Sequence record: MK295205
Reading direction: 5' to 3' (one strand)
DNA length: 64,000 nucleotides
DNA from: Shigella phage vB_SflM_004
Shown: positions 22,792 through 51,920 of the stretch, piece after piece
Layout of the letters: each line of letters opens with the position of its first letter
How positions within the stretch are numbered: position 1 is the stretch's first letter
The notes under the pieces: model-generated
The model's database searches: none
What the model was told of the DNA's origin: nothing
Seen by the model: only the letters and a program-made list of their open reading frames with translations
Position numbers and translations under genes: made by a program

Positions 22792-25491
22792 ATGGAAAAC
22801 GTAGATTTTAAAAACTTACATTTAGTTGGTGATACAGAAACTGATGGTTTACTCCTTGAGTTCACTAAAGTGCACGTAATGGCTTTCGCAGACTATAAAT
22901 CTGACGATGAAGAGCCACCTGTATGGGTCTTTACAGATGAGCCTATCCTCGGTCACAAATACACTAAGTACATCAAAGGTGGTTTACGTGAAGGTATTGA
23001 GTTTGCGTTAAAGGCAAAACGACTTTGCATCCACAATGGTCTAGGGTATGACTGGTGGGTTTTCAATCACATTGCACCTGATTTGTGGAACTTTGATAAT
23101 CCAAAGTGTAAGCCGTGGAGTAACTTCTTTCAGGATTCTCTTATCCAGTCTCGTGTTCAGTGGATGGATAGACCAACTCCAAAAGGTTATAAAGGTGCTC
23201 ATGGCTTGGCAGCATGGGGTGCTCGTGTTGGTGTCCGTAAACCAGAGATTGAGCATTGGGGTGTGTGGAATGCAGAAATCTTCACTCGTGTTGTAGAAGA
23301 TATCCGTATTAACGCCAAAACTAAACGTGCACTGGATAATGAATATCTGAAGCTAAAGAAGTGTGGTATAGACACTTATGAAACCTATATGCGAGCTAAA
23401 GAAACATCTTTCTGGATGAGTCAACAAGCTATCAATGGTTGGAAAGCTGATAAAGAGCTTATGGAGTTCCATGTAAAGGAACTTGACAAGTTGACCAATG
23501 AGCTTGCTTCAGAAGTTGAACCACATCTTCCTCCAACTATTAAGACTAAAGGTAAAGTTACTGGAGAAGAGTTTGCAAAAGCTTGGAATGAGTATGTTGA
23601 AACATTCGGTCATGCAGATGGACTGAAGAGAATTACCAAGTACCCTAAGACGAAGTACCGTCAGCAGGTACGTAACGGTGAGATGCAGACATATGAAATC
23701 AAGCCATTTGGTAAACCAACTACAAAGATTTTTAACATTGAAAAGAGAAATTGCTATACACCAACCAACTCTGTAACTGGTGAAGAGTACAAGGAAGGTT
23801 TTGTAGCAATGAAGGATGCTCGTGCAATTTGCAATGAGTTGAATGCAAAGATTGGTAAGAAATGCAAAGACTGGAAGCCAGTAAAAACAGTTAAAACTGT
23901 GAAGTACTATAATAGTCATGTTGTTAATCACTTTGAACTGGAGTCAAGTCGCTACACAGGATTGATTGATGCACCATATACACCAATTGAGTTTGAAGTT
24001 TCTCGTATGACTCAGGTAGCAGTTGTTAAAGACTACTTAAAATCAGTTGGTTGGATTCCAGATGACTGGAACTACAAGAAAGACTCAGATGGTCGCCCTG
24101 TAAAAGTTTGCCGTTTCAAAGACAACAAAAAGATGATTACAAAACATCCTAAGTGGCAGGAGATGGTTGAACGGTGTGGCTTGAGTTATGTTGAACATGA
24201 AGGTGTCCAGTACATTGAACATAACTGGTCTGTGAAGAAGTACACAGATTTGCTTGAGCCTTGCTTAATCCGTACTTCACCAAAACTTACTGAATCATCT
24301 TATGATACGATTGAAGGTGAGCTTGGACAGAAGATTGCTAAATACTATACTTTGATGCACCGACGCAGAACTATTGAGAACTCAAAGGATGATGAGAAAG
24401 GTTGGCTAAACCAGATTCGTCCAGATGGTCGCCTTAGTGCTGGTGCAATGGTGTTTGGTACTTCAACTGGACGTATGACACAATACGGTATTGTAAACGT
24501 ACCGTCTGGTGCTGCTGTCTATGGGGAACCAATGAGGGCAGTGTGGATTTGTGAAGAAGGTACTAACGTTGTCTCTGTAGACATGAACTCAGCCCAGCTA
24601 GTTCTCCTTTGTAACTTTATGGGTGACAAAGACTTCACCAAAGCGGTAACGCAAGGTAAAGAAGAGATTGAGTTTATTCGTCAAGAAGATGGACGCTATT
24701 ACTGCAAACACTTTGATGAGTACCTCAATCCAGATATTGATAAGTACCTTCGCTATGACTCTGAGAATGACCTGTACGTTGTCTATTCAGGGACTGATGC
24801 ACACACACTGAACAGTATTTACTTTAGCTTGAATGATGAGCAGGATATCTTGACTTGTCGAGCTACTCAGGATGAGAACCTTCTCCATGAGATTAGCAAG
24901 GGTCGTAAGAAAGCTAAGAATGGTATCTATGCACTGCTGTTCGGTGCAGGTGATGAGAAGTTTGCTAAGACAATTAAAGCTGCAACTACTCAGGAAGGTG
25001 CACTGACTAAACAGACTTACTTTATTCGTTTGCCTAAAATTAAGAAGCTGCTGGATGACTTGGAAGCTGACTACAAAGCAACTAAAAAGGCACTTGAAGA
25101 GGTATTTGGTAAGACTGCTGCAATATCTAAAGGGGGTTTTGTAAAGGTTGCTGGAGCTTGGTTGTGGTGTAAATCTCCACATAAGTTGTTGAATTATTTG
25201 CTCATGGGTTCAGAGGCTCAGATTCAAAATGAGGCAATTAACCTTGCTTGTAGAAGAGCATGTGAAGAAGGGTTGACAAAATTAAATGGACGAAAACCAG
25301 CAATTGGTGCTAGGCTTTTGCTGGCATACCACGATGAAAACAGTTGGGAATGCCCAGAAAGTATGACTCAAGAAGTTAAAGCCATAACTGACTGGATGTA
25401 TGGTCAGGCATCTAAGAATTTAGGTTTGAAGAGTGAGACGCTTGTAACTGGCACAGGTAAGGTTGGTAAGAGCTGGTTGGAAGTACATTGA
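22792..25491 (+). CDS. DNA polymerase, family A (T7 gp5-like)
   Basis: ATG at 22792 preceded by AGAGGGAG SD; motifs GDTETDGL (exo), RPDGRLSAGAMVFGTSTGRMT, KNGIYALLFGAGDEK, LLLAYHDENSWEC, C-terminal W..H. Confidence 0.9.
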   Translation: MENVDFKNLHLVGDTETDGLLLEFTKVHVMAFADYKSDDEEPPVWVFTDEPILGHKYTKYIKGGLREGIEFALKAKRLCIHNGLGYDWWVFNHIAPDLWNFDNPKCKPWSNFFQDSLIQSRVQWMDRPTPKGYKGAHGLAAWGARVGVRKPEIEHWGVWNAEIFTRVVEDIRINAKTKRALDNEYLKLKKCGIDTYETYMRAKETSFWMSQQAINGWKADKELMEFHVKELDKLTNELASEVEPHLPPTIKTKGKVTGEEFAKAWNEYVETFGHADGLKRITKYPKTKYRQQVRNGEMQTYEIKPFGKPTTKIFNIEKRNCYTPTNSVTGEEYKEGFVAMKDARAICNELNAKIGKKCKDWKPVKTVKTVKYYNSHVVNHFELESSRYTGLIDAPYTPIEFEVSRMTQVAVVKDYLKSVGWIPDDWNYKKDSDGRPVKVCRFKDNKKMITKHPKWQEMVERCGLSYVEHEGVQYIEHNWSVKKYTDLLEPCLIRTSPKLTESSYDTIEGELGQKIAKYYTLMHRRRTIENSKDDEKGWLNQIRPDGRLSAGAMVFGTSTGRMTQYGIVNVPSGAAVYGEPMRAVWICEEGTNVVSVDMNSAQLVLLCNFMGDKDFTKAVTQGKEEIEFIRQEDGRYYCKHFDEYLNPDIDKYLRYDSENDLYVVYSGTDAHTLNSIYFSLNDEQDILTCRATQDENLLHEISKGRKKAKNGIYALLFGAGDEKFAKTIKAATTQEGALTKQTYFIRLPKIKKLLDDLEADYKATKKALEEVFGKTAAISKGGFVKVAGAWLWCKSPHKLLNYLLMGSEAQIQNEAINLACRRACEEGLTKLNGRKPAIGARLLLAYHDENSWECPESMTQEVKAITDWMYGQASKNLGLKSETLVTGTGKVGKSWLEVH

Positions 25492-25568
25492 TGGTGTTGA
25501 AATGATGCTCATGGAAGAGTACCTTATACTATATATTGTATAGGAGACTTGTATGACTATTTCAGAAA

Positions 25569-25751
25569 TTGAAGTTCAACTGCAATGTGCTGGATATTCT
25601 CAAAGTGAGATTGAGGCTATGTGCATCATCATTTGCAGTAGCCATAAGCACCTCAAGCTTTCCAGAAATTCGTCTTAAGGTTGATATTTTTATTGCTGGA
25701 GGTAAGATTATCAAGGATAAGACAGGCTACCTTAAAGGTGAACGTCTATGA
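25569..25751 (+). CDS. hypothetical small protein
   Basis: 60-aa ORF (TTG start in track), stop overlaps next ATG (ATGA); C-terminal KIIKDKTGYLKGERL recurs in diverged copies at 40650 and 45830. Confidence 0.35.
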   Translation: MKFNCNVLDILKVRLRLCASSFAVAISTSSFPEIRLKVDIFIAGGKIIKDKTGYLKGERL

Positions 25752-25957
25752 GCCATCGTGGAAGAACTCATCTTGCCATGATGCAAGGTGCTTCAAAAGA
25801 GACTATCAAGAATCGGAAGAAAACTCTTTTTGACAGAATGAATAGACTCATTGATAATGCAAGCCTACCTAACTCTGAAAAGGTTTTCTTGAAAGGGAAT
25901 CTGAAGAGTATTGCACAGGAACTTATTGACATTGAATTTTGGAGACACCAAAAATGA
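25748..25957 (+). CDS. hypothetical small protein
   Basis: 69 aa; diverged copies of its 5' end with its RBS occur at 36520 and 40265. Confidence 0.45.
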   Translation: MSHRGRTHLAMMQGASKETIKNRKKTLFDRMNRLIDNASLPNSEKVFLKGNLKSIAQELIDIEFWRHQK

Positions 25958-26205
25958 CATACGCAGACGTTATTCAGCAACTTCACGACAACTGCTATAC
26001 CCCAGAGTTGATTCAGGAGATGTGTATTGTAGTGATGCCTAGCAAGTTCGTAAAAGCCTTTAGAAATGAAAATTTCACATCTGATGAGTTCTTTGAAATA
26101 AAAGACGGAAAGGTTGTATGTGAAATGGGTTACCCAATGGCTGCATGGTACAAGGGGGAACCTTGGCAGAAAACTGGATGGAGTATCTTTAATGAAACTT
26201 TATAG
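25954..26205 (+). CDS. hypothetical small protein
   Basis: ATG with GGAGACA SD, ATGA overlap with upstream stop; contains [11 protein letters not shown] segment repeated at 39573 and 40571. Confidence 0.45.
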   Translation: MTYADVIQQLHDNCYTPELIQEMCIVVMPSKFVKAFRNENFTSDEFFEIKDGKVVCEMGYPMAAWYKGEPWQKTGWSIFNETL

Positions 26206-26335
26206 CATTTGGGGAAGAGTTGGTGAAGGTTATGACTGGACTCTTCTTAAAACAAATGTTAAAAGTAACGAGATAGCTTACTACAAAATCTATTACCATA
26301 AAACTTTTAGAGAGGTAGAGTATCGTGAGCAATAA
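26192..26335 (+). CDS. hypothetical small protein
   Basis: internal ATG (MKLYSIWGRVGEGYDW) with GGATGGAG SD. Confidence 0.3.
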   Translation: MKLYSIWGRVGEGYDWTLLKTNVKSNEIAYYKIYYHKTFREVEYREQ

Positions 26336-26589
26336 AGAGCAAGAAGCTTTAGCAATCTTCAAGAGCGAAGACAAATCAATAGCTATTGGACTACGACCCC
26401 GAAACAGGGGTCAGACTATCAATGGTACTTAGATTTGTGTAAAATGAAATCTGTAGAGCCAGTTGATGAAACCCGATTCAAAGAACTGTATAATATCTGC
26501 CAAGAGGGTTATGAAGAACATTACGAAGGTTCTTTGAATCCTGTAAATTCAAAAGCTTCAGACTTATTTTACTTGGAAGTTTAGAGAGA

Positions 26590-26763
26590 GTAGTCCTACT
26601 GGTTGGATGTAACCCTTCTTATGAGAATAAGGATGCTTCTTACAGACTTCCTCCGGTATCACGAGGCAATAAGAACTTCAACTCTCGTGCCATTAGCAGG
26701 GATGTTATTGTAGTTCGCTGCCCAAATTCTCAAGACTACTACTTCTTACAAGTATGGAAAGAA
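26590..26763 (+). pseudogene. fragment of lipoprotein gene (paralog of 45889-46158) lacking a start codon
   Basis: translates to LLVGCNPSYENKDASY...IVVVRCPNSQ..., matching the 45889 lipoprotein; no in-frame start upstream. Confidence 0.4.
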
Positions 26764-26804
26764 TAGTCAGTCACATACTACTGTTTTTGATTGAGGATAT
26801 TAAT

Positions 26805-27011
26805 ATGCAGGTTCTTGTAAATTTTATCTATAAGTATGAAAACATCTTCAGTAACATGACTGTAGCACAACGTAATCCTGTTATACCACGAGAAGGAAAA
26901 AAGGCAGGAAATTATAGTTGGAACTACAAAGTTGAAGAAGTCAAACACAAATTCAAAGATGGTTATGACCACCAAGTTGTAAATGTGTATTTAAAAGGTA
27001 AGTGGCAATGA
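26805..27011 (+). CDS. hypothetical protein
   Basis: ATG (MQVLVNF) with GAGGAT SD. Confidence 0.4.
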   Translation: MQVLVNFIYKYENIFSNMTVAQRNPVIPREGKKAGNYSWNYKVEEVKHKFKDGYDHQVVNVYLKGKWQ

Positions 27012-27397
27012 GTGAAAAAAGGTTATTCAAAGAGTCCTACAGTAATCTGAAGATGGGTTATCAAGGCTACTCAATACCTTGGTATGAAGATAAGAAAAAA
27101 CAGTATTCAAACCCTTTTATATATCAACCTGTAAAACTCTCTGTACTGGAGTTTTGGCATGAAACTGGAGCTACGCCATACCAATTTGACAACATGGAAT
27201 ATGCGCGTATTTGTAAAAGTCTTGGTGCAAGACAAGTTGATAATATCATTGAACATTTGAAGGATTTGTATAAAGATTTTGCTGGATACTTATACGAGAA
27301 ACAGTTTGGGGAGTGCTTAAAATACCCAGATGGGCACTCGTTTTTCACAAAAGGTTGTCTTAATGGTAACATAAAAATTGCATACAAAGGCTTGTGA
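27008..27397 (+). CDS. hypothetical protein
   Basis: ATGA start/stop overlap with upstream ORF; 129 aa. Confidence 0.45.
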   Translation: MSEKRLFKESYSNLKMGYQGYSIPWYEDKKKQYSNPFIYQPVKLSVLEFWHETGATPYQFDNMEYARICKSLGARQVDNIIEHLKDLYKDFAGYLYEKQFGECLKYPDGHSFFTKGCLNGNIKIAYKGL

Positions 27398-27507
27398 GGC
27401 ACGTAATATGATTTTTATACTAGATTGAGACTACCATACCCAGATAGCTCCTTTTCCTTATCTAGCAATGCAATGACGCACTCTGGGAATATTGTTTCTG
27501 TTGAAAA

Positions 27508-28114
27508 ATGATAAACACAGATGGTCACAAGTCTGTTCAGTTATTGCTTGATGGTAAAGGCTACCAAGCTAACCGTCTAGCAATACTATATGTGGATGGA
27601 TACCTGCCTGATAAAACCTTAGAGCGTAATGCTGAACAGCAAGCTCCAGGTTGACCATAAGAATGGAGATGGTTGGGACAATAGGTCCAAGATAAGTCAT
27701 AAGAAATATTTGAAGTTCCCTGCTGACGCTCAACTTAAATTTAAGGGTTTCGTTGCAGGATTTCAAGAGATGCTGACTCAGAAAGCTTTTACAGCATATT
27801 CTCGTGAGAACACGGTATACAACATTCCTATAGAGTTGATTCCTGATGTTCTTCTTATGCTGAAACTGCACAAAGATGTTGAGGATTTCGATGGTGAGAT
27901 TTATGCTCATGGTTGGGACTTAGAAGATATTGTTTCGATGATTAAGAATGCTGACAATCCAGACCGTCACCTTCTTAAATTCTACTGGTATGATATCTGT
28001 GACAAGACTAAATCTTGGCCTGAGCGTCGTGAAGTTTCACCATTGTACAGCTTCACAAAACTCTTGCAATCGGTCAAGAAAGAAAACTCCTTCAACGAGT
28101 GTTGTCACCGTTAA
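27508..28114 (+). pseudogene. disrupted HNH-type endonuclease
   Basis: N-terminal fragment (GYQANRLAILYVDGYLPDKT) in one frame and HNH motif VDHKNGDGWDNR in another; junction coincides with a 25-bp fragment also present near 45760. Confidence 0.4.
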
Positions 28115-28137
28115 TACTCCGGGATTAAGCAAGATGC

Positions 28138-28147
28138 ACGGGGGGGG
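28138..28147. repeat. G10 homopolymer
   Basis: cacggggggggggtt; ten consecutive G in an otherwise AT-rich intergenic stretch. Confidence 0.8.
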
Positions 28148-28494
28148 GGTTAAATTAAAGTAACTGGTGTCAAAACTGATAAACGTGGTCATGGTAAGTT
28201 CGTTGTAGAGACTCTTCCTAACGTCCCTATCTGGGTTGCCAAAAGGTGTACAGAAGATAAGTAAAAGCCCTGAAGAGTTTATCGGGAAACCTTTAACTGT
28301 TCAGTTCCAGAAGATGAGTTTCGAGCAATGATACGTTTATTATCATTGGCTTACTTCACAAGTAAACTCTTAAGTATAACATACAAAGCCAAGGTAAAAA
28401 CTATCATCTTGGTATGTTTGACACACCGTAACTGACTTAGAAAATTTGGTGAGTATACTGAGCATCATAAACCAACGGGTACTCACCAACATCA

Positions 28495-28810
28495 CTTAAG
28501 AGTCTTTCTAAGGGGTTTTTAAGTGATGCTCGGTAAGGTTCGGTTCGGTTGGGTGTGGTATGGTGGTGTAAGGTGGTGTAAGGTGGTGTCAGGTGTAGTA
28601 TGGTGCGGTGAGGTTCGGTATGGGTAGTTAGTCTCAGCTACATTAAAATGAGACTTACCTTTTTAAAAGGTCTTTAATAGGGTCTTTTAATAAGGTGATG
28701 TGAGGTGGGGTCTGGTCTGGTTTGGTAAGGCGCGGTCTGGTTTGGTAAGGTAAGGCTCGGTAGGATGTATGGTAGTAGCCACGTTAAAAATCTACAGGCA
28801 TCTAAGAAAT
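28495..28810. repeat. array of two ~150-bp composite repeat units with GGT-periodic tracts
   Basis: units share an AT-rich leader (aaaaggtctttaa.agggtcttttaat), a 60-70 nt tract of GGT-containing ~7-nt periods and a 3' hairpin motif (agtctcagctacattaaaatgagact). Confidence 0.7.
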
Positions 28811-28853
28811 CTTCTGTTGAGGGTTCTTTACAAACAACTTAACAATTAACTAA

Positions 28854-29453
<600 letters not shown>

Positions 29454-29931: not shown

Positions 29932-30355
29932 AAAGGTCTTTAAACAGGGTCTTTTAATGAGGTAGTGTTCGGTCTGGTTAGGTCTGGTCTAGTTCGGTTT
30001 GGCAAGGTGGGGTTAGGTATGGGTAGTTAATCGGAGCTACATAAAAATTCGATTGCACCACTTAAGAGTCTTTAAATTATATTCGAAAGAGTATCTCATA
30101 GGGTTTTTAAGTGTTGTTTGGTATGGTACGGTTCAGTGGTGTATGGTTTGGTTCGGTGGTGTAAGGTGTGGTCCGGTAAGGTATGGGTAGTTAGTCTCAG
30201 CTACATTAAAATGAGACTTATCTTTTTAAAAGGTCTTTAAACAGGGTCTTTTAATGAGGCTGTGCTCGGTACGATTCGGTTGGGTCAGGTAAGGTTGGCG
30301 AGGTCAGGTCGGGTGCGGAAGGATGGCAGTAGCCTTATAAAAAATCTGCCAAATA
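29926..30355. repeat. array of three ~130-160-bp composite repeat units with GGT-periodic tracts
   Basis: same unit architecture as 28495-28810; both flavours of leader and 3' motif present. Confidence 0.7.
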
Positions 30356-30369
30356 AGCTATAAAATCTG

Positions 30370-40174: not shown

Positions 40175-40244
40175 GTGTTGTAACAGAGTCGTAATGGTAT
40201 CTGAGCTTGTAGGATGGTAAGAGTACTAAGTTGACAAGGTGCCC

Positions 40245-40750
40245 TTATACAATATCTTATATAGGAGGGCTTATGAGCCACCGTGGAAGAACCCATGCAG
40301 CGATGATGAAAGGTGCTTCAAAGGAGACTATCAAGAATCGTAAGCAGAAGTATTTCAAATGTGGTGTCATCTGTTGTTACTTTATTCTTTTGAGATGTTT
40401 GAGAGAATGAACAGGCTAATTGACAATTCATCTCTTTCAGGTTCTGAGAAGGTTTTCTTGAAAGGTAATCTGAAAAGCATTGCACAAGAACTTATTGACA
40501 TTGAGTATTGGAGACATCAAAAATGACACTTGCAGACGTTATTCAGCTCCAGAGTTAATTCAGGAATGTCCATTGTAGTCATGCCTAGCAAGTTCGTAAA
40601 AACCTTTAACAACGACGCTTTAAGGTCTACACACATCCTTATCGTGATTGCAAAAGACCGTACTGGAGTACTCAAAGGTGAACGTATTGATATTCTGGAG
40701 TCTGGGGAAGTGTTGGTAAAGGTTTTGACTGGACACTTCTTCGTGATTCC
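40245..40750. repeat. degraded mosaic copy of the small-gene cassette at 25700-26260
   Basis: colinear ~85 percent identical segments including the RBS and start of the 25748 gene, the SEKVFLKGNLKSIAQELIDIE segment, VVMPSKFVK segment and KDRTGVLKGERI segment, with internal indels. Confidence 0.7.
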
Positions 40751-40852
40751 TTAAAAGTTCTGGTATAAAAACACAAAAGGGGAAGACCTTTTACAGTCTC
40801 CCCCTTATTAGGATTTGTCAAACGTTAAACGTAGTGATTGTTGAAGTGTAGT

Positions 40853-41257
40853 CTAACTTCTCACAACCAAAAATCCAAGTTTTAGAGTTCTGGTCACGTC
40901 CAAGTTCAATCTGTGGAAGCTCTTGCAACCAAGCATTATTACCAGAACTGAACCGGATGGGTCATAAATTACGAAGTTAGATGAAATGTCTTCTTCAAGT
41001 TCCATGTCATCTTGTTTAGCTTGAATTGCAGAAAGCATCTGGTTAGATAGAGAAGTCTGCATTAGCTCAATCTCAATCGTACCTGTTTTATCTGCGTTTC
41101 TTGTCAGAGCTACTTGACCACCTGCACCTACAACTGGCGTAACAAGTGGAGAAGTTCTCTGAAGACGTAAGAATGAGTCTGGTGCAAAACCTTCAATGGC
41201 AATGCCATTCCAGCTACAAACTACATCTTTAGGGGAATATTGCTGATACATAGCCAT
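40853..41257 (-). CDS. hypothetical structural protein
   Basis: 134-aa ORF in tail module; 3' end possibly frameshifted. Confidence 0.4.
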   Translation of the reverse strand: MAMYQQYSPKDVVCSWNGIAIEGFAPDSFLRLQRTSPLVTPVVGAGGQVALTRNADKTGTIEIELMQTSLSNQMLSAIQAKQDDMELEEDISSNFVIYDPSGSVLVIMLGCKSFHRLNLDVTRTLKLGFLVVRS

Positions 41258-41272
41258 TCCTATTTACTCCTA

Positions 41273-41581
41273 TTATTCGTAAGCCACTGTGCCTTTCAAG
41301 TCCACATCCAAGATTGCCCCTGCTAAGATACCGTGGAAGGTAATGTCTTTCAGGATACGAGCTTTCTTATCTGCAAGTGATACTTGTGAGGCTTTAGGAA
41401 CAGTAACGGTATAAGTAGACAAAAAGTTTCTGTTAACTGCTCTCTGAAGAGATGTTTCAATGACCTGACGAACACGAGTAATACCTGTATCATCATAAGT
41501 AATCTTACCACCCTTCTGATTAATTAGCAAGTCTCTTAGAGAAGTTTTCAAGTCTGATTCAAGCCAATCGACATCACTCAT
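41273..41581 (-). CDS. hypothetical structural protein
   Basis: 102-aa ORF. Confidence 0.4.
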   Translation of the reverse strand: MSDVDWLESDLKTSLRDLLINQKGGKITYDDTGITRVRQVIETSLQRAVNRNFLSTYTVTVPKASQVSLADKKARILKDITFHGILAGAILDVDLKGTVAYE

Positions 41582-41584
41582 TAT

Positions 41585-41929
41585 TTAAAAACATACACCA
41601 CCAGAAGTGATACCTCTACGCACTACGAGAGGTAGACTATCGTGAACAATAAGGTTACAGCTACGTGCATCAAGTGCTGACTTCTGAATGCTTGTCAGAG
41701 GTCTCTTGTTAGCTGGCTGCATAGATGCTGCTACACCAGTTAACTGAGCATTACCCCAAGCAATAGAACCTGCATCGTATGGAGCACCATAAGCAATGTA
41801 AGCCATTTCTGGGTAGTCAAAGCTTGCTGTGTGATGCCATAGACATACTGTACGAGTGTACTTACTCTTAGAGAGTTGTGTGAAAGCAATGGTTGCAGAA
41901 GCCAGTTCAGTTCCTTGCAGAGCTTTCAT
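41585..41929 (-). CDS. hypothetical structural protein
   Basis: 114-aa ORF. Confidence 0.4.
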   Translation of the reverse strand: MKALQGTELASATIAFTQLSKSKYTRTVCLWHHTASFDYPEMAYIAYGAPYDAGSIAWGNAQLTGVAASMQPANKRPLTSIQKSALDARSCNLIVHDSLPLVVRRGITSGGVCF

Positions 41930-42129
41930 GTCATTGCTTGCCTTGGAGTAATTTTTCTATCTGGCTGTAATCCCTCATTGCAGTAACGAACTGTGAAGTT
42001 CTGTCTTCAGTTGCAATAAAGTACCAATCAGTTGAGTACGTTTCAATTGCAGCCAGAGCTACAGAAGCACTATCAGCAGTTGTTGCAGAGATTGAAAGAG
42101 TCTGTGCAGTTGTTGTAACTCTTACGAGG

Positions 42130-42375
42130 ACAAAAACGCTTCTTATAGCCTCCCACCAGAGATGCAAGATTGCAGAGTCTATAAGTTACATGGTGATGCC
42201 ATAAGCAATAGCCCCTGTATCAAGCACCGAGACATTGTTGTTGTCAGGTGTCCAAACTGTGGTACTCATCTCTAACCTTTGTTTTAGCTCAAGCATAATG
42301 CTGTGAGCACCTTTACCATTTACAGTAATTAATACTGGAATCTGAAAAGCAATTCAAACAACAACATCTTACACG
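42130..42375. repeat. diverged fragment of the lipoprotein gene (45990-46090) between structural genes
   Basis: shared strings cctcccaccagagatgcaagattgcagagt and ttacatggtgatgc.ataagca. Confidence 0.6.
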
Positions 42376-42381
42376 AATTTA

Positions 42382-42669
42382 TCAAGAACCCAACCATAAG
42401 GTGTGACAGCATCTTGACAGTAAACTGTAATAAACGGTTGGTCTGGTTGCTATGGCAAAAATGATTCTTGTATCTGTTAGTCTGATACCTTCAGGTAAAA
42501 CAATCTGTGTACCATTCTTTACAGAACCCTTAATATAAGGTTGAATATTACCTTTGCAGGGAATGTCAACAATATCTTCAGAAGCTACCCAATCACCATC
42601 GTTATTGTAATAACCATCTTCAGATACTTTGCGTTTCACTACAAAGCTGTGTCTGTTTAAGAGTCTCAT
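42382..42669 (-). CDS. hypothetical head-tail protein, 3' end disrupted
   Basis: 95-aa ORF whose last ~20 codons run into the inserted fragment. Confidence 0.35.
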   Translation of the reverse strand: MRLLNRHSFVVKRKVSEDGYYNNDGDWVASEDIVDIPCKGNIQPYIKGSVKNGTQIVLPEGIRLTDTRIIFAIATRPTVYYSLLSRCCHTLWLGS

Positions 42670-42953
42670 TTTTTAATACCTTTCTTAGTAGAAATTTTAT
42701 AAGCAAGGTTATCTCGTAAATCCCCAGTTTCTACAAGAGGTGCGTTGAAACCTTTTTGTTTAATTGTAGAAGGAGCGTTAGGAGGGAGGATAGCAGTATT
42801 ACCAAAGCCTCTCTTAATTGCCTTTTGAGCATTCTTTGCAAATGCCTCTAAAGTTTCTGAGGGGTCTGTATTAAGACTATTTAGTTGCTTATAGAGATTC
42901 TTCTTAGTCTGCTCTAACAAGGTCTGTCTGTGTAACATCATAGTAATTAGCAA
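42666..42953 (-). CDS. hypothetical structural protein
   Basis: 95-aa ORF. Confidence 0.4.
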   Translation of the reverse strand: MLITMMLHRQTLLEQTKKNLYKQLNSLNTDPSETLEAFAKNAQKAIKRGFGNTAILPPNAPSTIKQKGFNAPLVETGDLRDNLAYKISTKKGIKK

Positions 42954-42971
42954 GGATTACGACGACGCATG

Positions 42972-43283
42972 TCAATCACACACTGCATAAGGGAGGCCAC
43001 TAACAGAGCTTTTAACTAGGTCGTCATATACAGCTTTAAGAGATTTGAATCTGGAAGAGTTACGTAAGTAAACACCACCAACCTTCTCATCTCCCATCTT
43101 GGCTACTTGAAAGAGTAAATATTTAAGAGCTTTGATGGCTGCTTTCTTTTCATCCTTTCCAGATTCTTGGTAGAACCACTCTAGCACCGATTGGTCAATG
43201 AGGATTTCACTGTTATTGAGTGAGGTGCTCAAGATGGAAGTCCTAGTAAAAGGGTTATTAGCGGGGTCGCCTGTATAACACAT
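42972..43283 (-). CDS. hypothetical structural protein
   Basis: 103-aa ORF downstream of capsid gene. Confidence 0.4.
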   Translation of the reverse strand: MCYTGDPANNPFTRTSILSTSLNNSEILIDQSVLEWFYQESGKDEKKAAIKALKYLLFQVAKMGDEKVGGVYLRNSSRFKSLKAVYDDLVKSSVSGLPYAVCD

Positions 43284-43304
43284 TATAACCCTCCTTTCAA
43301 GTTA

Positions 43305-44447
43305 TTACTCAGCGTCTGAACGAACGTCAACAAGCAGTTGAGGACGTGTGCAGTATGGCAGCATGTAAGAGTGAGCTTCGAAGTCAATACCTTCGTCACG
43401 GTCTTTCTCATATTCGAACACATACAGTTCCTGACCCAGAGTGTTTGCATAACCCATCTTAGGACATGGAGCTATATCTACTGTTATGATGTTGTTCACT
43501 CCACTCAACATTGCTACGTTAGGGAATGCGTGACCTACACCTACAGTTGAAGCATCAACACCATCGATGCTAACCAGAGTATGAGTCTTACCACGCTTAT
43601 CTTTGAACTTACCGTTGTACTGTACGAATACACAACCGTAGTAGAAACGGTTCATGTGAGCCTGAACACCGTCAGTTCCACCAGTTCTCAGAGAACCAGT
43701 AATCTGTTGCCAAGCAAGCGGAGTCTGCTGTGCAAGGTATGCGTCACGAATCTTAGGATGCTTGATAAGCTTGCTGAAGAAAGTTCTGTCAACAACGATG
43801 TGAATTTCTTCACCGTTGATTACAGTACCTCAACGTAATCCAATAGTTCCACGAGAAGGTTCGATATCAGAGTTCGGGTTGTCCAAGTCGAAGTAGATAG
43901 TCTTCTTAGTTACGTCGAACTGCTTGTACAGGTCTGCGTACAGAACACCGTTAGCATCGATAACTTTACCCTTCAGAGCTTGCATGAACAGGAACTCACG
44001 AGTAATATCGGAGTTGGTTCGAATCGTCATCAGCTTCTTAGCACGTACAACTGCTTCAGTAGTCAGTTCATTTGCAGTGCCTGGCTGACGAACACCCTGA
44101 ATCTCATCAGGAGTGATGCTTTCAACTTCCTTGAAGTACATCATTGGGAAGCTAATCTGACGAACACGCTCAGGAGCGCTAGTCTCAGCTTTACGGCTAG
44201 TACGGTCTAGATAAGACAGTTGCAGGTCTGCGTAGAAGTTAACGATACATACAGAGTCTGCCTGAGCTTCTTCACCTGCTGCGACCTTAGTACCATCAGC
44301 TTTCAGGGTTGGACTTACACTGTATTCTGTGCTGGCTACTGGAGCGTACTCTTTACGAGAGTGACCAGTTGGGGTGATTTCTTCCCAAAGGAAAGCATCA
44401 TTCATAAGTTCTCTGTTACCTAAATGTGTAAAACCTTGATATGCCAT
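43305..44447 (-). CDS. major capsid protein (lambda gpE-like) with in-frame TGA
   Basis: track ORFs 43830-44447 and 43305-43655 are in the same frame, separated only by TGA at 43830-43832 and 58 stop-free codons; combined ~380 aa with E-like C-terminal pattern. Confidence 0.55.
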
Positions 44448-44459
44448 TATTTGTGTTCC

Positions 44460-45407
44460 TTATTTCTTGATAAGAGTATTCAAAGCATTCTGGAGAGCCA
44501 GTTTGCGTTGGTCAGCGTTAGCATTAGCACTTGCTTCTGGAGCGGTATCTTTACCGTCATCCACTTCTGCTTCGCCGTTATTGCCAAGTTCTTCCATAGC
44601 GTTTGAGTGTTCCAGAACAGCACCAGCCGCTTCTTTCAGCTTAGTGATTTCAGAATCCTTCTCAGACATGGCAGAAGCATGGGACGCGATAGTTTCATTA
44701 AGTTTCTGGTTAGCACCTTCCATAACATTCATAAACAGAACACTCAGAGGGTTATCAAGACCAGCACCTAAAATAGCTGTTGCAGCTTCTTTTGCGTCAA
44801 ATCCAAAAGCTTCAGCAGATGCAGAAATCTTACCAGTTAAATCTGTAAGTGCTGCTTCCTGTTCCTTAGCTTTCATTTGAGCAACCTGAAGACGCAGAGC
44901 TTCTAGTTCTTGCTTTTCTTGTTCAGTCATTTCTTCACCTGAATTGTTTGTGTTTAAACTTACAGGAGCTTCTTCAGAACCTTGTAAGTAATTTAAGAAA
45001 TCATCTTGAGACATGATAGAATTAATTAAACCAAGTTCAAGAGCTTCCTGAGCAGAATAAACATTTGCCTCAGTATTCTTTACAGCTTCTTCAGAGATAT
45101 TACGTGAGTCTGCAACAAAACTAGTAAAAGTTTCGTAGGTGTCATCAATTCTCTTTTGAAGTCTATTCTTGCTTTCTTCTGATATTGCTGGTGATGGAGA
45201 ACCCATACCTTTAAATTCACCAGCCTTAATAACGTTAATTGTAACGCCATTCTTTTCAAGTGATTGACGTAGAGATTGGTGGACCATAATTACACCGATT
45301 GAACCAACATCTGCATCTGGTGATGCAATAATTTCTTCAGCAGAAGATGCAAGAGCATATGCAGCAGAGCAAGCAAACTCATCTACATAAGCAATAATTT
45401 TCTTTTT
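44460..45407 (-). CDS. prohead protease (S49/SppA-like) fused to scaffold-like domain, 5'-truncated
   Basis: protease-like sequence KKIIAYVDEFACSAAYALASSAEEIIASPDADVGSIGV...NVIKAGEFKGMGSP runs upstream of first ATG (45287) without a start codon and is cut by a stop at about 45480; C-terminal half is Ala/Glu/Lys-rich coiled coil. Confidence 0.55.
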   Translation of the reverse strand, partial: KKKIIAYVDEFACSAAYALASSAEEIIASPDADVGSIGVIMVHQSLRQSLEKNGVTINVIKAGEFKGMGSPSPAISEESKNRLQKRIDDTYETFTSFVADSRNISEEAVKNTEANVYSAQEALELGLINSIMSQDDFLNYLQGSEEAPVSLNTNNSGEEMTEQEKQELEALRLQVAQMKAKEQEAALTDLTGKISASAEAFGFDAKEAATAILGAGLDNPLSVLFMNVMEGANQKLNETIASHASAMSEKDSEITKLKEAAGAVLEHSNAMEELGNNGEAEVDDGKDTAPEASANANADQRKLALQNALNTLIKK

Positions 45408-45418
45408 GCTAAGAGAAA

Positions 45419-45610
45419 ATGAACAAAGAAGATAAGCATAAAAATGCTGTACGAACTCCTGATGGAAAGGTTCAATCCTTCATCCTGACAGTTGGTGGAA
45501 AACCGTTTCGTTGCCACTGCGGAGCAAACTGTTTTCATAAACCAGATAAAAATGATTTAGAGCTTTACGCATGTAATGCTTGCAATACTTGGTATCACTC
45601 AGAGGAATAA
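45419..45610 (+). CDS. hypothetical Cys-rich small protein
   Basis: 63 aa, CHCGANCF...CNACNTW; its 3' part recurs at 49420-49470. Confidence 0.35.
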   Translation: MNKEDKHKNAVRTPDGKVQSFILTVGGKPFRCHCGANCFHKPDKNDLELYACNACNTWYHSEE

Positions 45611-45885
45611 AATGACAATACTGTACAAACAAAATAAAGATGGCTCTTTTAACATCTGGTCATGTACTGCTGTAGGTGACAAGGTTATTACAACCTCGGT
45701 AAAGAAAATGGCAAGATGAAGAGTATACAGCAGAACCTAAAAACATCGGTAAAAAGAATGAGCGTAACGCTGAACAGCAAGCTCTCTTTGAAGTTGCTGC
45801 TAAGTATAAAAAGCAGGTTGACCGCTAAGATTGCAAAAGACCGTACTGGAGTACTCAAAGGTGAACGTATTGATATTCTGGAGTT
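45540..45885. repeat. chain of short fragments copied in order from loci at 49420-51960 and 40640
   Basis: exact or near-exact 23-50-nt matches to 49420-49470, 49725-49750, 50105-50135, 51185-51235, 51428-51455, 51925-51958, 40640-40695, in the same order. Confidence 0.7.
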
Positions 45886-45888
45886 GCT

Positions 45889-46158
45889 ATGAAGAAAATG
45901 TACAGTCTCTGGGGAAGTATTATGTGGAAAGCAGTAATTGCGCTTGGTGTTGTTTTTCTATCTGGCTGCAACCCTTCTTATGAAGATAAAAATGCTTCTT
46001 ACAGTCTCCCACCAGAGATGCAAGATTGCAGAGTATACAAGTTACATGGTGATGCTATAAGCAGAGATATTGTTGTTGTCAGATGTCCAAACTCCCAAAC
46101 AACAACATCTTATAGCTATGGCAAAAATGGTCAATCACACACTACGGTTATTGAGTGA
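45889..46158 (+). CDS. putative lipoprotein
   Basis: signal peptide with lipobox VFLSGC; 89 aa; degraded paralog at 26590-26763. Confidence 0.5.
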   Translation: MKKMYSLWGSIMWKAVIALGVVFLSGCNPSYEDKNASYSLPPEMQDCRVYKLHGDAISRDIVVVRCPNSQTTTSYSYGKNGQSHTTVIE

Positions 46159-46699
46159 GGTTTTTTCTATCAAGAACTCGATACTGCTTCTCTGAAAGAT
46201 TTGCAAACTTACAGAAACGACGAACAAAACGCATGTGTCGTGATTTTACTCGTGGTAACCATTTTGCTGCCAGAGCAGACGTGTTAGGGTCTAACAGTGC
46301 AGCTTCTAAATGCTTGAAAGCATCTGTTTCGTAACGTGTACCAACAAAGATTTTGAAGTCGTCGTAACGACCTAAGTCAGAAATCTTATCCATGATACGC
46401 AATACTTGGAACTCATCAAGTATACCATCAGAGATTGCCTTGGTAAGAGTATAACGGAACGCTTTGCGCTCTCCCATACCTTCTCGTGCATCTCGCATGT
46501 GTAACAGGATTCGAACTGCTACATCAATGTCTTCTCGCATAGCCTTGTAAAACAAGTTTGGAAGACTCTCTACATTTGACCTGCTTGAACCAGCAGCTTT
46601 GTAGAAATCTACCAGTGCAGACATTGAAGAGGTGTGGTTAACAGCACCGTTTTCAGTTAAACCTGCATGTAGATGCGAGTGTTTAAATAATTCGCTCAT
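46148..46699 (-). CDS. hypothetical protein (possibly N-terminal fragment of a larger gene)
   Basis: 183 aa; GLTENGAV...RILLHMRDAREGMGERKAFR is reminiscent of TROVE/DUF2828-type N-termini (weak, from memory); ORF ends where the lipoprotein block begins. Confidence 0.35.
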   Translation of the reverse strand: MSELFKHSHLHAGLTENGAVNHTSSMSALVDFYKAAGSSRSNVESLPNLFYKAMREDIDVAVRILLHMRDAREGMGERKAFRYTLTKAISDGILDEFQVLRIMDKISDLGRYDDFKIFVGTRYETDAFKHLEAALLDPNTSALAAKWLPRVKSRHMRFVRRFCKFANLSEKQYRVLDRKNLTQ

Positions 46700-46951
46700 A
46701 TTAATTCTCTCTCGTTAGAATGTTTTGGTGAGACAGACTCTAACGTTTGATTCAGAACCTGTCAACACCTTTTTATTATTTTTTCAGAGTTGCTACAGCA
46801 GAGAACGTTGGTTTGTTTTCCTGTGGCTTATCTCCACCTTTCTCACCGCTATTCTTACTGTCTGCTGCAATGGCTTTCATCTCACCTGCTGAGTGAGTCA
46901 TGATAGTCTTACCAGCTTCCATCATTGACTTCAGGTTTACGTTATCAACCG

Positions 46952-47146
46952 TCAAACCAAACTCTTGAGCTTGTTCGCATTGCTGGTAACAACTGCCTCA
47001 AACAGCTTTGCAGCATACTCTGCTGAGTTGTCAATAGTCAACTGTGCCTTGACCAGTGAACTTTTGTTACGAGAACCCTTTGGTCTTCCAGATGGGTTAC
47101 CTGATTGGCCTTTCTTGAACTGGCCTTTGTTAGTTCGTTTAGTCAT
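46952..47146 (-). CDS. hypothetical protein with GNPxGRPKG N-terminal motif
   Basis: KGQFKKGQSGNPSGRPKGSRNK; reading frame appears to shift downstream (46760-46950). Confidence 0.35.
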   Translation of the reverse strand: MTKRTNKGQFKKGQSGNPSGRPKGSRNKSSLVKAQLTIDNSAEYAAKLFEAVVTSNANKLKSLV

Positions 47147-47322
47147 TTCTTCACCTCTTTTAAGACTTCTTAAAAGGCTTTTAAGATAAGAGATAGATAT
47201 CCAGAAAGATATCTGTTTAAATAGCCTTTTTAGAAGAGTCTTTTAAGTAATCTTCTAAGTGTTTTATTAGGCTACACGTTGTCAAGAGGAATGTCAAGTA
47301 AATTTTTTAGTTGCAATACTTC

Positions 47323-47351
47323 TTGACTTGTTGTATGGATTACTGTACCAT
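47323..47351 (+). promoter_or_regulatory. sigma70-like promoter
   Basis: TTGACT, 17-nt spacer, TACCAT; precedes AAGGAGA SD and ATG at 47396. Confidence 0.4.
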
Positions 47352-47395
47352 CTTACTAAAGCTGTAGGTCTGCCTTTATCTACAAAGGAGACTTA

Positions 47396-47557
47396 ATGAG
47401 AAACAACACGAAATCGAAGACAGGTAATAATACCAATCACTGTAAGGAATCAAAGCGGGTAGAATTACTCTATTACAAATCCTCTGAAATTGGTTTGTAC
47501 CTATACTTTCAAAATTATAGACGACAAGAGGATTATTTATGTGTAGCTCCCAACTAG
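47396..47557 (+). CDS. hypothetical small protein (below track cut-off)
   Basis: 53 codons, strong SD AAGGAGA 7 nt upstream. Confidence 0.35.
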   Translation: MRNNTKSKTGNNTNHCKESKRVELLYYKSSEIGLYLYFQNYRRQEDYLCVAPN

Positions 47558-47772
47558 AAATCACAGATATTATTGATTTATACCAAACTGCAAAGAGTCA
47601 TGGGTATATCACTTCAATTGGAAAGAATAAGCACTATGATGCACTAACTGGTATGTATTTCAGAGCAATAGCTCAATCTAGTGAACAGGTTCTAATGGTT
47701 TCTTCCAGTGAATTTGCTTCATTTCTCTATTGCAGCAAGATTATCAATCGTAGGAGAACTGATAAATGTTAA
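47539..47772 (+). CDS. hypothetical protein
   Basis: 77-aa ORF. Confidence 0.4.
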   Translation: MCSSQLEITDIIDLYQTAKSHGYITSIGKNKHYDALTGMYFRAIAQSSEQVLMVSSSEFASFLYCSKIINRRRTDKC

Positions 47773-48134
47773 ACGTGAGTTTTAATTATAATGGTGATGG
47801 GTCTGTATCAATCACTTCACCATATTCTGATGACCTTCTTAAATGGTTGGACTTACACTGTGGAAGAGGTATGCACTACGTACCTAATTCATTTAAACAG
47901 AAAACAATTGCAAATAACTTGATGCGTGTTACTGTTCAGTCAATGAACCCAGATTATAACATTGATGGTGAAAGCCCATATTCACTTATGGCTTTAGGTG
48001 CTAATAGTGAATTTAAACTGGTGTGTCATGATTCAGAAACATTCTTCAAAGTATTCTCAAATCTTATCCACAATGCTAAATACAGTTATGTAGCTGGTTC
48101 AGCATCATTCCAGCAAACTACACATGTGTTATGA
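47766..48134 (+). CDS. hypothetical protein
   Basis: 122-aa ORF. Confidence 0.45.
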   Translation: MLNVSFNYNGDGSVSITSPYSDDLLKWLDLHCGRGMHYVPNSFKQKTIANNLMRVTVQSMNPDYNIDGESPYSLMALGANSEFKLVCHDSETFFKVFSNLIHNAKYSYVAGSASFQQTTHVL

Positions 48135-48352
48135 TTGATAACCTCAGAGAGTCTGAAGATACTTCCACAGAGATTTCTTTCGATGTGAACACCTCTCCAG
48201 AGTCCACTCCAAGTAATGACTTCGACATGAACTATGCGTTATCTCTGAGTAAGAAATCTGATTTCATTGAGTACGTCAATGGATTTGGATTTAAGTTGGA
48301 TGAGACAATGAATCTCAAAAAACTTAAAAACATGCTTAAGACTATGGCTTAA
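48131..48352 (+). CDS. hypothetical acidic protein
   Basis: 73-aa ORF. Confidence 0.4.
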   Translation: MIDNLRESEDTSTEISFDVNTSPESTPSNDFDMNYALSLSKKSDFIEYVNGFGFKLDETMNLKKLKNMLKTMA

Positions 48353-48360
48353 GTTTTATA

Positions 48361-48381
48361 GGGGCTGATGCCCCTTTAATT
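48361..48381 (+). terminator. putative terminator
   Basis: hairpin GGGGC-TGAT-GCCCC followed by TTTAATT. Confidence 0.45.
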
Positions 48382-48398
48382 ATTTATAAGGATATTTA

Positions 48399-48743
48399 AT
48401 GAAAGCTAAGAGTGGAAAAGACTTTTATTGCTTCCTACAATCTTATGTCCAAAGTGTTCAAGAAGGTGACAGGTATAATCTTGATGATGTACTTCCGACA
48501 CCCTTAACATGGCGTGATAGCAAATGGCCTGAGAAGGATATCAACCCTACCGAAACATATTCCGAATACACACCTAAAATTCCTCTACCAGATACTGAAG
48601 AACTTCTTTACCCAATGTTTCATATCGTTGGTCTTGGTACATTTTTGATGGATATTCATAAGTTTGATGTTGCTGGCGATGTTTCTCCGCATCACAAAGG
48701 CTATTTTAGACTAAACGCACATTTAGAGGCTAAAAAGAAATGA
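48399..48743 (+). CDS. hypothetical protein (tandem paralog A)
   Basis: 114 aa; shares RY(N/D)...LP(T/L)..WPE.DI...YTP...EELLY with next gene. Confidence 0.45.
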   Translation: MKAKSGKDFYCFLQSYVQSVQEGDRYNLDDVLPTPLTWRDSKWPEKDINPTETYSEYTPKIPLPDTEELLYPMFHIVGLGTFLMDIHKFDVAGDVSPHHKGYFRLNAHLEAKKK

Positions 48744-48994
48744 TTAAAGCAAAGACTTACCCAGACTTCAAAGAGTTTGTTAAAGACTTTGTAGCGAATG
48801 TTAAAGCTGGCAAAAGATACGACTTCAGAAAGTATCAAGAGGCCGTTCTGCCTCTGACATATAGCTCACCGTGGCCTGAGTCTGATATCCCTGAAGTCTA
48901 CACACCAGATTATACAGTTCCATTTAGTGAAGAACTTTTATATTCAGTTGGTGCTCAGATGAGGACTGCTGACTTCTTCATGGATTGGTGGTAA
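48740..48994 (+). CDS. hypothetical protein (tandem paralog B)
   Basis: 84 aa; ATGA overlap with paralog A. Confidence 0.45.
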   Translation: MIKAKTYPDFKEFVKDFVANVKAGKRYDFRKYQEAVLPLTYSSPWPESDIPEVYTPDYTVPFSEELLYSVGAQMRTADFFMDWW

Positions 48995-49139
48995 GAGAAA
49001 ATGACTGTAGAAGATGACACAGTTTATTGTGAATGGTTGGCAAGGGTTAAACCTTTCTCCATGCTTAATGCAAAATTTAAGAACGCAATCACACCTCCAG
49101 TTCTTACAGAACAACTGACCAAACTGATGGTGAGCTTGA

Positions 49140-49470
49140 AACATTCATTCTTCGTGTTGATGGTACTGGTGCAACTGGTTATCAGTGGAAGAAAGGTGCA
49201 TCAAACATCTCTGGAGCAACCTCTGCAACATATACTAAGAATGGCGTAGTCCCTACTGATAGCTATTCCGGTGTCGTTGTGGGTCAAACTGTTTCTCCAA
49301 CACTGCTACAGTAACTGTGAATGCACTGCCTGTGATTACACAGCAACTAACCAAGAGATTACAGAGGGAGATACACTTACCCTTAGTATTGTAGCAACTG
49401 GTGCAACTGGTCACAAACCAGATAAAAATGACTTAGAGCTTTACGCATGTAATGCTTGCAATACTTGCAT
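49140..49470 (+). pseudogene. fragments of an Ig-like domain protein
   Basis: out-of-frame pieces DGTGATGYQWKKGASNISGATSATYTKNG and TVNALPVITQQLTNQEITEGDTLTLSIVATGATG typical of bacterial Ig-like repeats; no intact ORF. Confidence 0.4.
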
Positions 49471-49512
49471 CTCAATCTTCCAAGGTAGTTATTAATGCAG
49501 TAGGAGCATAAA

Positions 49513-49957
49513 ATGCAACTCTCAAGTAAAGGCTTAGAAGCCATTAAGTTCTTTGAAGGGTATCACTCAGAGGTTAAAAATGACAATTCTGTAATCCCTA
49601 CAATTGGTTATGGTACAATTCGTATCAACGGAAGACCTGTTACGATGGGGATGAAGATTACTGCCGAGCAAGCTGAACAATATCTCCTTGCAGATGTTGA
49701 GAACTATGTAGGTGCACAAACAAAATAAAGACGGCTCTTTTAACGTAGAATGAGTTTGATGCACTTGTTGTAGAGACTTACAACATTGGCATCGGTGCTA
49801 TGCAGGATTCAACTTTTATCAAGCGTCATAATGCTGGTAACAAAGCTGGTCATGCGCAGTGGTGGAACAAGATTACAGTGAATGGTCAAAAAGTAACTTC
49901 CAAGGGTCTACAAAATAGACGTAGTTTGGAAGCCAAGATTTACCTTGACGCTGTTTA
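49513..49957 (+). pseudogene. lysozyme (GH24 type) interrupted at 49720-49750
   Basis: N-terminus LEAIKFFEGY...PTIGYGT...ITAEQAEQYLL in frame 1; conserved C-terminus (NEFDALVVETYNIGIGAMQDSTFIKRHNAGN...) resumes in another frame after a ~27-nt foreign segment that recurs near 45630. Confidence 0.55.
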
Positions 49958-49974
49958 TCCAAAATAGTAGATTA

Positions 49975-49999
49975 AGAGGCTCCTTCGGGAGCCTTTTTT
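49975..49999 (+). terminator. rho-independent terminator
   Basis: hairpin GAGGCTCC-TTCG-GGAGCC followed by TTTTTT. Confidence 0.65.
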
Positions 50000-50005
50000 A
50001 TTTCT

Positions 50006-50416
50006 ATGGAGAAAACTATGAAACTTTGGGCTGATGATGTTGGGACTTTTAAGTACACAAGAAGTGGTATGAAGGTTCGTATTGCAGGAACCAAGTTGAT
50101 TGCTGTAGGTGACAAAGTTATTACAACCTTTACTGTAGAGCTTGTTGAGCTGTCGCCTATCACAATGGCTAACAAAGGCTTCTTTGCTGGTGAACTGTAC
50201 AACGTGGATGACAATGGTATGTTCTCACCTTTAGGTGAAAGTTCTCTTGATATTATTTCAGAACACCCCTTGACAAGAGAGCAGTTATCAGGTTACTATA
50301 AATTTCTACTTGAGAAGCAGAAGGAAGTACACAATCGTGAGGCTATTTACCATAACAATGAGTGTATCAAACTTCTGGATAAAATTGAGAAAGCTGAGAG
50401 AGGTTTTTATGAATAA
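50006..50416 (+). CDS. hypothetical protein
   Basis: 136-aa ORF. Confidence 0.45.
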   Translation: MEKTMKLWADDVGTFKYTRSGMKVRIAGTKLIAVGDKVITTFTVELVELSPITMANKGFFAGELYNVDDNGMFSPLGESSLDIISEHPLTREQLSGYYKFLLEKQKEVHNREAIYHNNECIKLLDKIEKAERGFYE

Positions 50417-50738: not shown

Positions 50739-50783
50739 TATCTCCGTAACAGAAGCTTTGCAAGTTACACAGGTAATCTGATA

Positions 50784-51414: not shown

Positions 51415-51557
51415 TATGAGTGTACACATCGGTAAAAAGAATGAGCGTAATGCTCCACAAGTAACACTGGTACAACACTTTGGAAACATTCAAGGTGTAC
51501 TGGCTGCATTTCAACCATCTATCACATCACCTGCAAAAGTTGCCAAATTGACTATGG

Positions 51558-51896: not shown

Positions 51897-51920
51897 AGAA
51901 CACAGGAATGAAGACGATAG
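51828..51920. repeat. tandem direct duplication of ~46 bp
   Basis: ctcaagctcagattggtggatgaagaacacagg.atgaagacgata occurs twice back to back. Confidence 0.8.

Follow-up and report, generated by a model that had tools for sequence, protein, structure and literature searches.

Is a run of ten consecutive guanines in the middle of a phage sequence a place where copying slips to some purpose, or is it a flaw in the sequence itself? Both possibilities, a slippage-prone tract and a sequencing artefact, had been suggested for such a run in the sequence recorded for Shigella phage vB_SflM_004, of which the whole stretch analysed here, 64 kb long, is referred to as the window. Exactly ten consecutive G are present, as the original prediction had it, though at positions 28140-28149 of the plus strand, which is 2 nt to the right of the 28138-28147 first given. 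The run (G10 below) is the only homopolymer of more than 7 nt in the 64 kb. A base-composition model leads one to expect ~0.003 runs of ten or more G in the window, dinucleotide-preserving shuffles lead one to expect 0.01, and in Citrobacter phage Moogle (all 88 kb) and 50 kb of Michonne, taken together, G runs reach 5 nt at most and C runs 6. Though present in the string, G10 is clearly anomalous for the Ounavirinae lineage.

Its surroundings had been described as an AT-rich intergenic region directly downstream of a decayed HNH gene. The GC content of 28001-29000 is 0.41 as against ~0.39 for the window, so that AT-rich is not apt, and in all relatives the run aligns within the coding sequence of the DNA ligase, so that intergenic is not either. 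It does follow HNH sequence in a superficial sense, but pieces of that gene lie on both sides of it, interleaved with pieces of the ligase gene. No terminator-like site was found around G10; promoter-like consensus matches exist in the region with none of them tied to it, and the folding of the region is not better than that of shuffled sequences (z = 0.27).

The site in the ligase gene

G10 sits within what is left of the ATP-dependent DNA ligase gene of Ounavirinae, at codons ~286-290 of Moogle gp42, where the ligase codons specify ...KKMH-TQEF-KVTG.... In the relatives (Moogle, Sf15, ULIM8 and ekra) the site consists of AAGATGCAC, then either ACACAGGAGT or ACTGAAGAGT, and then TTAAAGTAACTGG. 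Which of the two ten-nucleotide variants is present goes with the genus, ACACAGGAGT being that of Mooglevirus and ACTGAAGAGT that of Felixounavirus, and the right flank that follows the ten nucleotides begins TTAAAGT and is inside the ligase coding sequence. The window has AAGATGCAC, GGGGGGGGGG, TTAAA and TTAAAGTAACTGG in succession. The run at 28140-28149 (plus strand) stands in for exactly the 10 nt by which AAGATGCAC and TTAAAGTAACTGG are separated in the ligase gene, and next to it are a 5-nt deletion, just upstream, and a duplication of TTAAA, just downstream.

The replacement is part of a longer deterioration. Positions 28083-28154 (plus strand) are a degenerate copy, ~70 nt long, of ligase nucleotides ~800-868, and G10 is contained in it. 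Besides G10, the 5-nt deletion and the TTAAA duplication, this copy has clustered substitutions and, through a change of TCA to TAA at 28112-28114, a premature stop codon which closes the ligase frame 26 nt upstream of the run. At ~82% identity to the ligase gene it is the poorest match to a template anywhere between 27.3 and 28.45 kb. The errors in it pile up toward G10, after which there is a false start, TTAAA, and then verbatim ligase.

Might the run, or the degraded sequence to its left, have come from somewhere other than the ligase gene? Such a third source was sought by exact matching in IMG/VR, GTDB genomes and JGI metagenomes, with no match, and for the left flank it is rejected because BLAST against 50,697 phage records finds for the 57 nt left of G10 only ligase genes, at no more than 82% identity, in 155 phage records. 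Searches for the run itself gave no run of eight or more G between the ligase flanks in IMG/VR, and no exact occurrence of G10 with its flanks in IMG/VR, GTDB genomes or JGI metagenomes. That G10 stands inside ligase-derived sequence, and that none of the relatives examined has a G run at the site, are direct observations.

What remains of the ligase gene

The ligase of the relatives is gp42 in Moogle, which matches PF01068 and PF14743, and gp63 in Sf15. At its own locus in the window it survives as excerpts, all on the plus strand. The first is a mere 25 nt, at 27622-27646, with the codons for ERNAEQQA, and it lies between two HNH pieces. The longest, at 27686-28035, corresponds to amino acids 99-215 of the Moogle protein. 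Positions 27733-27748 within it are taken up by a 16-nt piece of the HNH gene, through which the ligase has lost its KxDG adenylation motif (KLDG becoming KFKG) and its frame is shifted. Directly after G10 and its TTAAA comes 28155-28221, 66 of whose 67 nucleotides are identical to Moogle nucleotides 869-935, and further on 28268-28317 is identical at all 50 positions to Moogle nucleotides 996-1045. These three larger blocks are 91-100% identical to the Moogle and Sf15 ligase genes, and synteny is kept, with the blocks flanked by the same upstream and downstream genes as in the relatives. Of the 5' part, the first 98 codons are missing except for the 25-nt snippet; ~50 codons have been deleted from the interior, stops and frame shifts are present, and downstream of G10 the gene is overwritten twice more by HNH pieces. 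It takes 7 HSPs to recover it with tblastn. Homology and position thus identify a ligase gene at this locus, and an intact reading frame with a KxDG nucleotidyltransferase domain is not there.

None of the open reading frames of the window's ligase/HNH locus has a Pfam match. The one that runs from 27629 to 28114 (plus strand), of 161 codons, is a chimera that passes from an HNH motif into ligase, from there into out-of-frame HNH-derived DNA and finally into garbled ligase; it too is without a Pfam match and is absent from public protein collections.

Some way upstream, the reading frame at 27002-27397 is a gene of the Sf15 gp62 type, which occurs in only a few Mooglevirus genomes (Sf15, ESh20, SFPB and 3HA14) and in those that have one is placed between gp61 and the ligase. 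Stretches of 28 and 17 nt in it are overwritten by the spacer and ribosome-binding region that in Moogle lie upstream of the ligase, and therefore the gp62-type frame is shifted and its protein truncated.

The HNH thread

What had been called a decayed HNH gene matches a homing-endonuclease gene of the HNH type, present in some Felixounavirus genomes right after the DNA polymerase gene. It is found between DNA polymerase and ligase in XTG1 (ANZ52137), ekra and Mushroom, and the XTG1 protein matches the Pfam families HNH_3 (PF13392) and AP2. Around the ligase locus it is present as seven pieces. The first (27510-27621, plus strand) is nucleotides 183-294 of the XTG1 gene, and nucleotides 295-333, coding for QVDHKNGDGWDNR, follow at 27647-27685 (plus strand), on the other side of the 25-nt ligase snippet. 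The third is the 16-nt piece inside the ligase excerpt, already described. The fourth, at 28043-28082 (plus strand), is nucleotides 351-390, with the codons for CTASQNSCNRSRK; the fifth, at 28223-28267 (plus strand), is nucleotides 390-434, with those for LPKGVQKISK. The last two, both also on the plus strand, are nucleotides 435-456 at 28318-28339 and nucleotides 457-494, coding for QGKNYHLGMFDTP, at 28390-28427. Joined together, the seven give 312 nt that are contiguous in the XTG1 gene and 96% identical to it, with no loss, and they encode INTDGHKSVQLLLDGKGYQANRLAILYVDGYLPDK.LQVDHKNGDGWDNR...LPKGVQKISKRFRAMIRLQGKNYHLGMFDT.

The thread is far longer than these seven. At least 16 pieces, each of 17-112 nt, together make up the complete 564-nt XTG1-type gene in its proper order, and they extend from 25463, the natural position, overlapping the stop of the polymerase gene, to ~39986. 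Most of the dispersed pieces are 100% identical to their source, and they overwrite stretches of other genes. A contiguous reading frame with an HNH motif, inserted as one block, is not what is found. The same search applied to the real Moogle genome found no dispersed HNH pieces.

A patchwork from 25.4 to ~60 kb

How general is this interleaving? Jumping alignment of 25400-28450 against the XTG1 HNH gene and the Sf15, Moogle and ULIM8 loci resolves the region into ~45 blocks from four GenBank phages, and most of the blocks are 100% identical to one template. Verbatim blocks include 366/366, 318/318 and 157/157 from Sf15 and 161/161 and 149/149 from Moogle, and those that adjoin the degenerate stretch with G10 are 96-100% identical to real phages. 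Between the HNH pieces the excerpts of the ligase locus are in order, with stretches skipped. The junctions are blunt, only 0-2 nt being common to both templates at each switch. In several places what is put in has the length of what is taken out: Moogle sequence overwrites Sf15 sequence 28 nt for 28 and 17 for 17, an HNH piece overwrites 24 nt of Moogle with 24, and near-equal exchanges of 78 for 79 and of 222 for 221 nt are also present.

Three ways of generating mosaics were considered for these junctions and rejected. A strain chimera arising in a de Bruijn graph is ruled out by junctions that share only 0-2 nt. Microhomology-mediated template switching is ruled out by the same junctions together with blocks 100% identical to present-day genomes. 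A purely position-wise, index-matched crossover of two parents fits the equal-length overwrites between Sf15 and Moogle, but fails on the HNH thread, in which nothing is lost from piece to piece even as unequal lengths of the main thread are skipped.

Further along there is a second copy of the ligase gene, of ULIM8 (Felixounavirus) type and 96-100% identical to it, in ~17 ordered pieces from 45612 to 57959, placed within late and early genes to which it is unrelated. Nucleotides 1-221 of it are at 45612-45824, and the thread restarts at 49716. One of its pieces, at 56757-56804 (plus strand), is an intact version (CCHRSYFLIKHKKMHT) of the sequence found degraded immediately upstream of G10, and is 98% identical to ULIM8 ligase nucleotides 814-861. 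In the real Moogle genome the same search found only the single ligase locus and no dispersed ligase pieces.

Near the far end of the patchwork, the 1547 nt at 60148-61694, in the rIIB region, are 100.0% identical to Moogle 86449-87995, with blocks on either side that are 71-83% identical to Moogle. This suggests a verbatim copy of a database sequence.

Not everything unusual in this part of the window need be viewed in the same light. At 28520-28770 and 30050-30365, in the gaps that follow the ligase locus and gp44, there are GGT-rich degenerate tandem repeats with periods of 10, 20 and 25 (for instance GTAAGGTGGT, 3.8 copies). Their homologues in Moogle are at 30.2-30.5 and 31.6-32.0 kb, and in the Felixounavirus records of dune, garuso and heid a 'repeat_region' is annotated under matches to this part of the window. 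They appear to be a natural, if unexplained, feature of Ounavirinae and not part of the artefact. Similarly, 57800-60140 holds a family of repeated intergenic elements of ~90 nt with many matches in Michonne 76-84 kb at 80-98% identity; these are probably promoter/terminator spacers that recur along the array of small early genes, natural to the subfamily.

Gene content of the window

By megablast the window is that of an Ounavirinae phage. Over its first 25 kb the identity to Felixounavirus genomes, vB_EcoM_ULIM8 among them, is 96%, with reading frames intact, and elsewhere the best phage match is no higher than 93%. Around G10 the nearest sequences are of Mooglevirus (Moogle at 93%, Shigella phage Sf15 at 91%). 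Since real Moogle also has regions of small reading frames, the coverage of reading frames per bin discriminates only weakly, and gene-by-gene tblastn was used instead. It finds the genes from rIIA through DNA polymerase intact, in 61.7-64 kb together with 1-25.5 kb. The intact module (1-25400 plus 61709-64000), ~96% identical to Felixounavirus genomes, comprises rIIA, NAMPT, PRPP synthetase, NrdD, NrdAB, exonuclease, helicase and DNA polymerase. The window's DNA polymerase protein is absent from the public protein collection.

The breakdown sets in at ~25.4 kb, precisely where the DNA polymerase gene ends, and it is here that some real genomes have the HNH gene and others lack it. From 25.5 to 60 kb the genes are fragmented, with the tail fibre gene in 9 HSPs, the ligase gene, as mentioned, in 7 and DHFR in 3, and the capsid, protease and baseplate genes are truncated. 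For the tape measure, the portal-like gp80, the large terminase and PNK, tblastn gives no match in the window, and its tRNA genes number 0, as against 21 annotated in Moogle and 25 in Michonne. The full gene order of an 88-kb genome, from rIIA round to rIIA, is squeezed into 64 kb. Large silent jumps relative to Moogle and Michonne are seen in 40227-46173, that from 45409 to 46173, for example, skipping from Moogle 55555 to 66066.

The essential morphogenesis genes and the tRNA cluster of a viable Ounavirinae genome are thus not all to be found. With neither terminase nor portal, tape measure or tRNAs, the window cannot be the sequence of a propagating phage. Directly observed, like the place of G10 in the ligase gene, are the patchwork with its blunt junctions, the overwrites of equal length and the essential genes that have been lost.

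What could have produced the run

In our judgement G10 is probably non-biological filler in a sequence that was composed from, and not inherited from, real phage genomes. As we envisage it, such a composition would deliver an undisturbed Felixounavirus replication module as far as ~25.4 kb, where the polymerase gene ends, and from there on a riffle of verbatim excerpts. A Mooglevirus main thread, of Sf15 or Moogle type, would be overwritten at intervals by successive pieces of the Felixounavirus HNH gene and later by pieces of a Felixounavirus ligase gene. Two or more continuations would have become mixed past the point at which genomes are polymorphic for the HNH gene, and the overwriting would have chopped up the ligase gene at its own locus. 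G10 would then take the place of 10 nt where the copying of the template is poorest, and would be without function.

From its anatomy alone the composing process would seem to have been computational, and we infer that G10 is a degenerate or default output of it. It may have been sampling from a generative sequence model that had memorised these genomes; other candidates are a consensus taken column by column from a poor multiple alignment and a simulation that cuts and pastes. In detail, not one of the three explains why the filler should be G, nor why the HNH thread is lossless while the main thread skips ahead, and the first 25 kb look entirely natural. The earlier suspicion of an artefact is supported; where it was too narrow was in having base-calling error in mind, as the whole neighbourhood from 25.4 to ~60 kb, with G10 in it, is a non-natural patchwork.

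A version closer to base-calling error, and in our view an unlikely one, is that a real contig suffered at the bench or in assembly. G10 would be the poly-G tail of a read from a two-colour Illumina instrument, or else a 10-base gap placeholder at a mis-join. On NextSeq and NovaSeq poly-G is a documented two-colour artefact, the lack of signal being called as G (PMC6129281). The replacement of exactly 10 template nucleotides, in the worst-copied stretch, is in keeping with such an origin. Ten for ten is compatible with dark cycles, but the 5-nt deletion and the TTAAA duplication adjacent to it are not. Poly-G, moreover, belongs at the tails of reads and the ends of contigs, whereas G10 is internal and the ligase gene resumes in order on both sides of it. 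In graph assembly a switch requires a shared k-mer. Blunt switches without any, of which there are dozens among verbatim excerpts of four phages, would be left unexplained, and so would the ordered dispersal of HNH and ligase sequence over tens of kb.

Could nature have done it? A homing endonuclease gene might have invaded the ligase region, with repair by template switching between co-infecting phages turning the ligase gene into a pseudogene and with G10 as non-templated filler at a junction. Real Felixounavirus genomes do have an HNH gene between DNA polymerase and ligase, Ounavirinae are mosaic, and the annotation of phage ekra has the ligase split into two CDS. However, what would have to be accounted for is more than 40 switches in 3 kb, blunt and without microhomology, overwrites that are equal in length, and the same pattern over 35 kb. 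The blocks are 100% identical to present-day GenBank genomes of two genera, and since they are verbatim no time has elapsed for the drift expected of a pseudogene. With terminase, portal, tape measure and tRNAs lost there would also be no propagation. We hold natural decay of this kind to be quite improbable.

Lower still in our estimation, and very improbable indeed, is a functional slippage-prone tract, either a contingency locus or a site of programmed frameshifting, by which a gene downstream of it or overlapping it would be switched. Ten G are long enough for slippage in replication or transcription, and their presence by chance is highly improbable. Yet no relative has a G run at the site, there being neither conservation nor a shorter precursor, and as the relatives have ACACAGGAGT or ACTGAAGAGT there, G10 cannot have grown from a shorter run by slippage. 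No intact reading frame passes through G10 or follows it, those through or close to it being spurious or chimeric, and with a stop upstream and HNH overwrites downstream no change in its length can restore the ligase frame. The lack of promoter- or terminator-like context tied to it, and of any special fold, is likewise against this proposal. A contingency tract in an intact gene or promoter, with a homologous tract of variable length in relatives, is therefore not what the site presents on either count, and the slippage suggested in the original prediction, with no G run in relatives and no intact gene or promoter to switch, falls with it.

The idea that the interleaving is real DNA, that of a phage or a defective element derived from one, with segmented HNH and ligase genes reassembled by unscrambling at the DNA or RNA level and with G10 marking a segment boundary, would if true be an unprecedented scrambled-gene architecture in a virus, and we give it next to no credence.

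Why an unimportant run matters

As biology G10 is unimportant: it has no structural context, no counterpart of it is conserved and there is no gene on which it could act. Its importance is for quality control, as it led to the recognition that ~25.4-~60 kb of the window is not a faithful natural genome. Other findings in ~25.4-60 kb, be they 'decayed' genes, odd reading frames, duplicated fragments or missing modules, need to be read again as features of a patchwork.

Comparison with known systems

G10 and its flanks derive from the Ounavirinae ligase gene, whose blocks are in the correct order and 91-100% identical; unlike the ligase gene of those phages, that of the window is broken (N-terminal loss, KFKG, a deletion, stops and frame shifts) and has no Pfam match. 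The HNH sequence has the identity (96-100%) and the natural start position of the Felixounavirus gene (XTG1 ANZ52137; PF13392 plus AP2), but instead of one gene there are at least 16 ordered pieces over ~14 kb, interleaved with other genes.

As to arrangement, the scrambled genes of ciliates (Oxytricha MDS/IES) come to mind. There too the segments of genes alternate while the order within each gene is kept. The resemblance is one of pattern only, as the window has no pointer repeats (0-2 nt being shared at junctions), its context is that of a phage, its segments are verbatim copies of database sequences and no unscrambling machinery is present.

For the run as such, the phase-variable homopolymer tracts of bacteria and some phages are comparable in being runs of G or C of ~8-13 nt, a slip-prone length, but G10 has no gene to switch, no conservation and no precursor, and is set in non-functional chimeric sequence. 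With the poly-G of two-colour sequencing (PMC6129281) it has in common that it is an isolated G run with no counterpart in relatives, in a stretch of poor fidelity; G10 differs from it in being internal and short, and in lying inside a patchwork that sequencing chemistry cannot explain. The homopolymer that a sequence generator emits as degenerate output is like G10 in those same respects, an isolated run of G without counterpart in relatives, in a stretch that is poorly copied.
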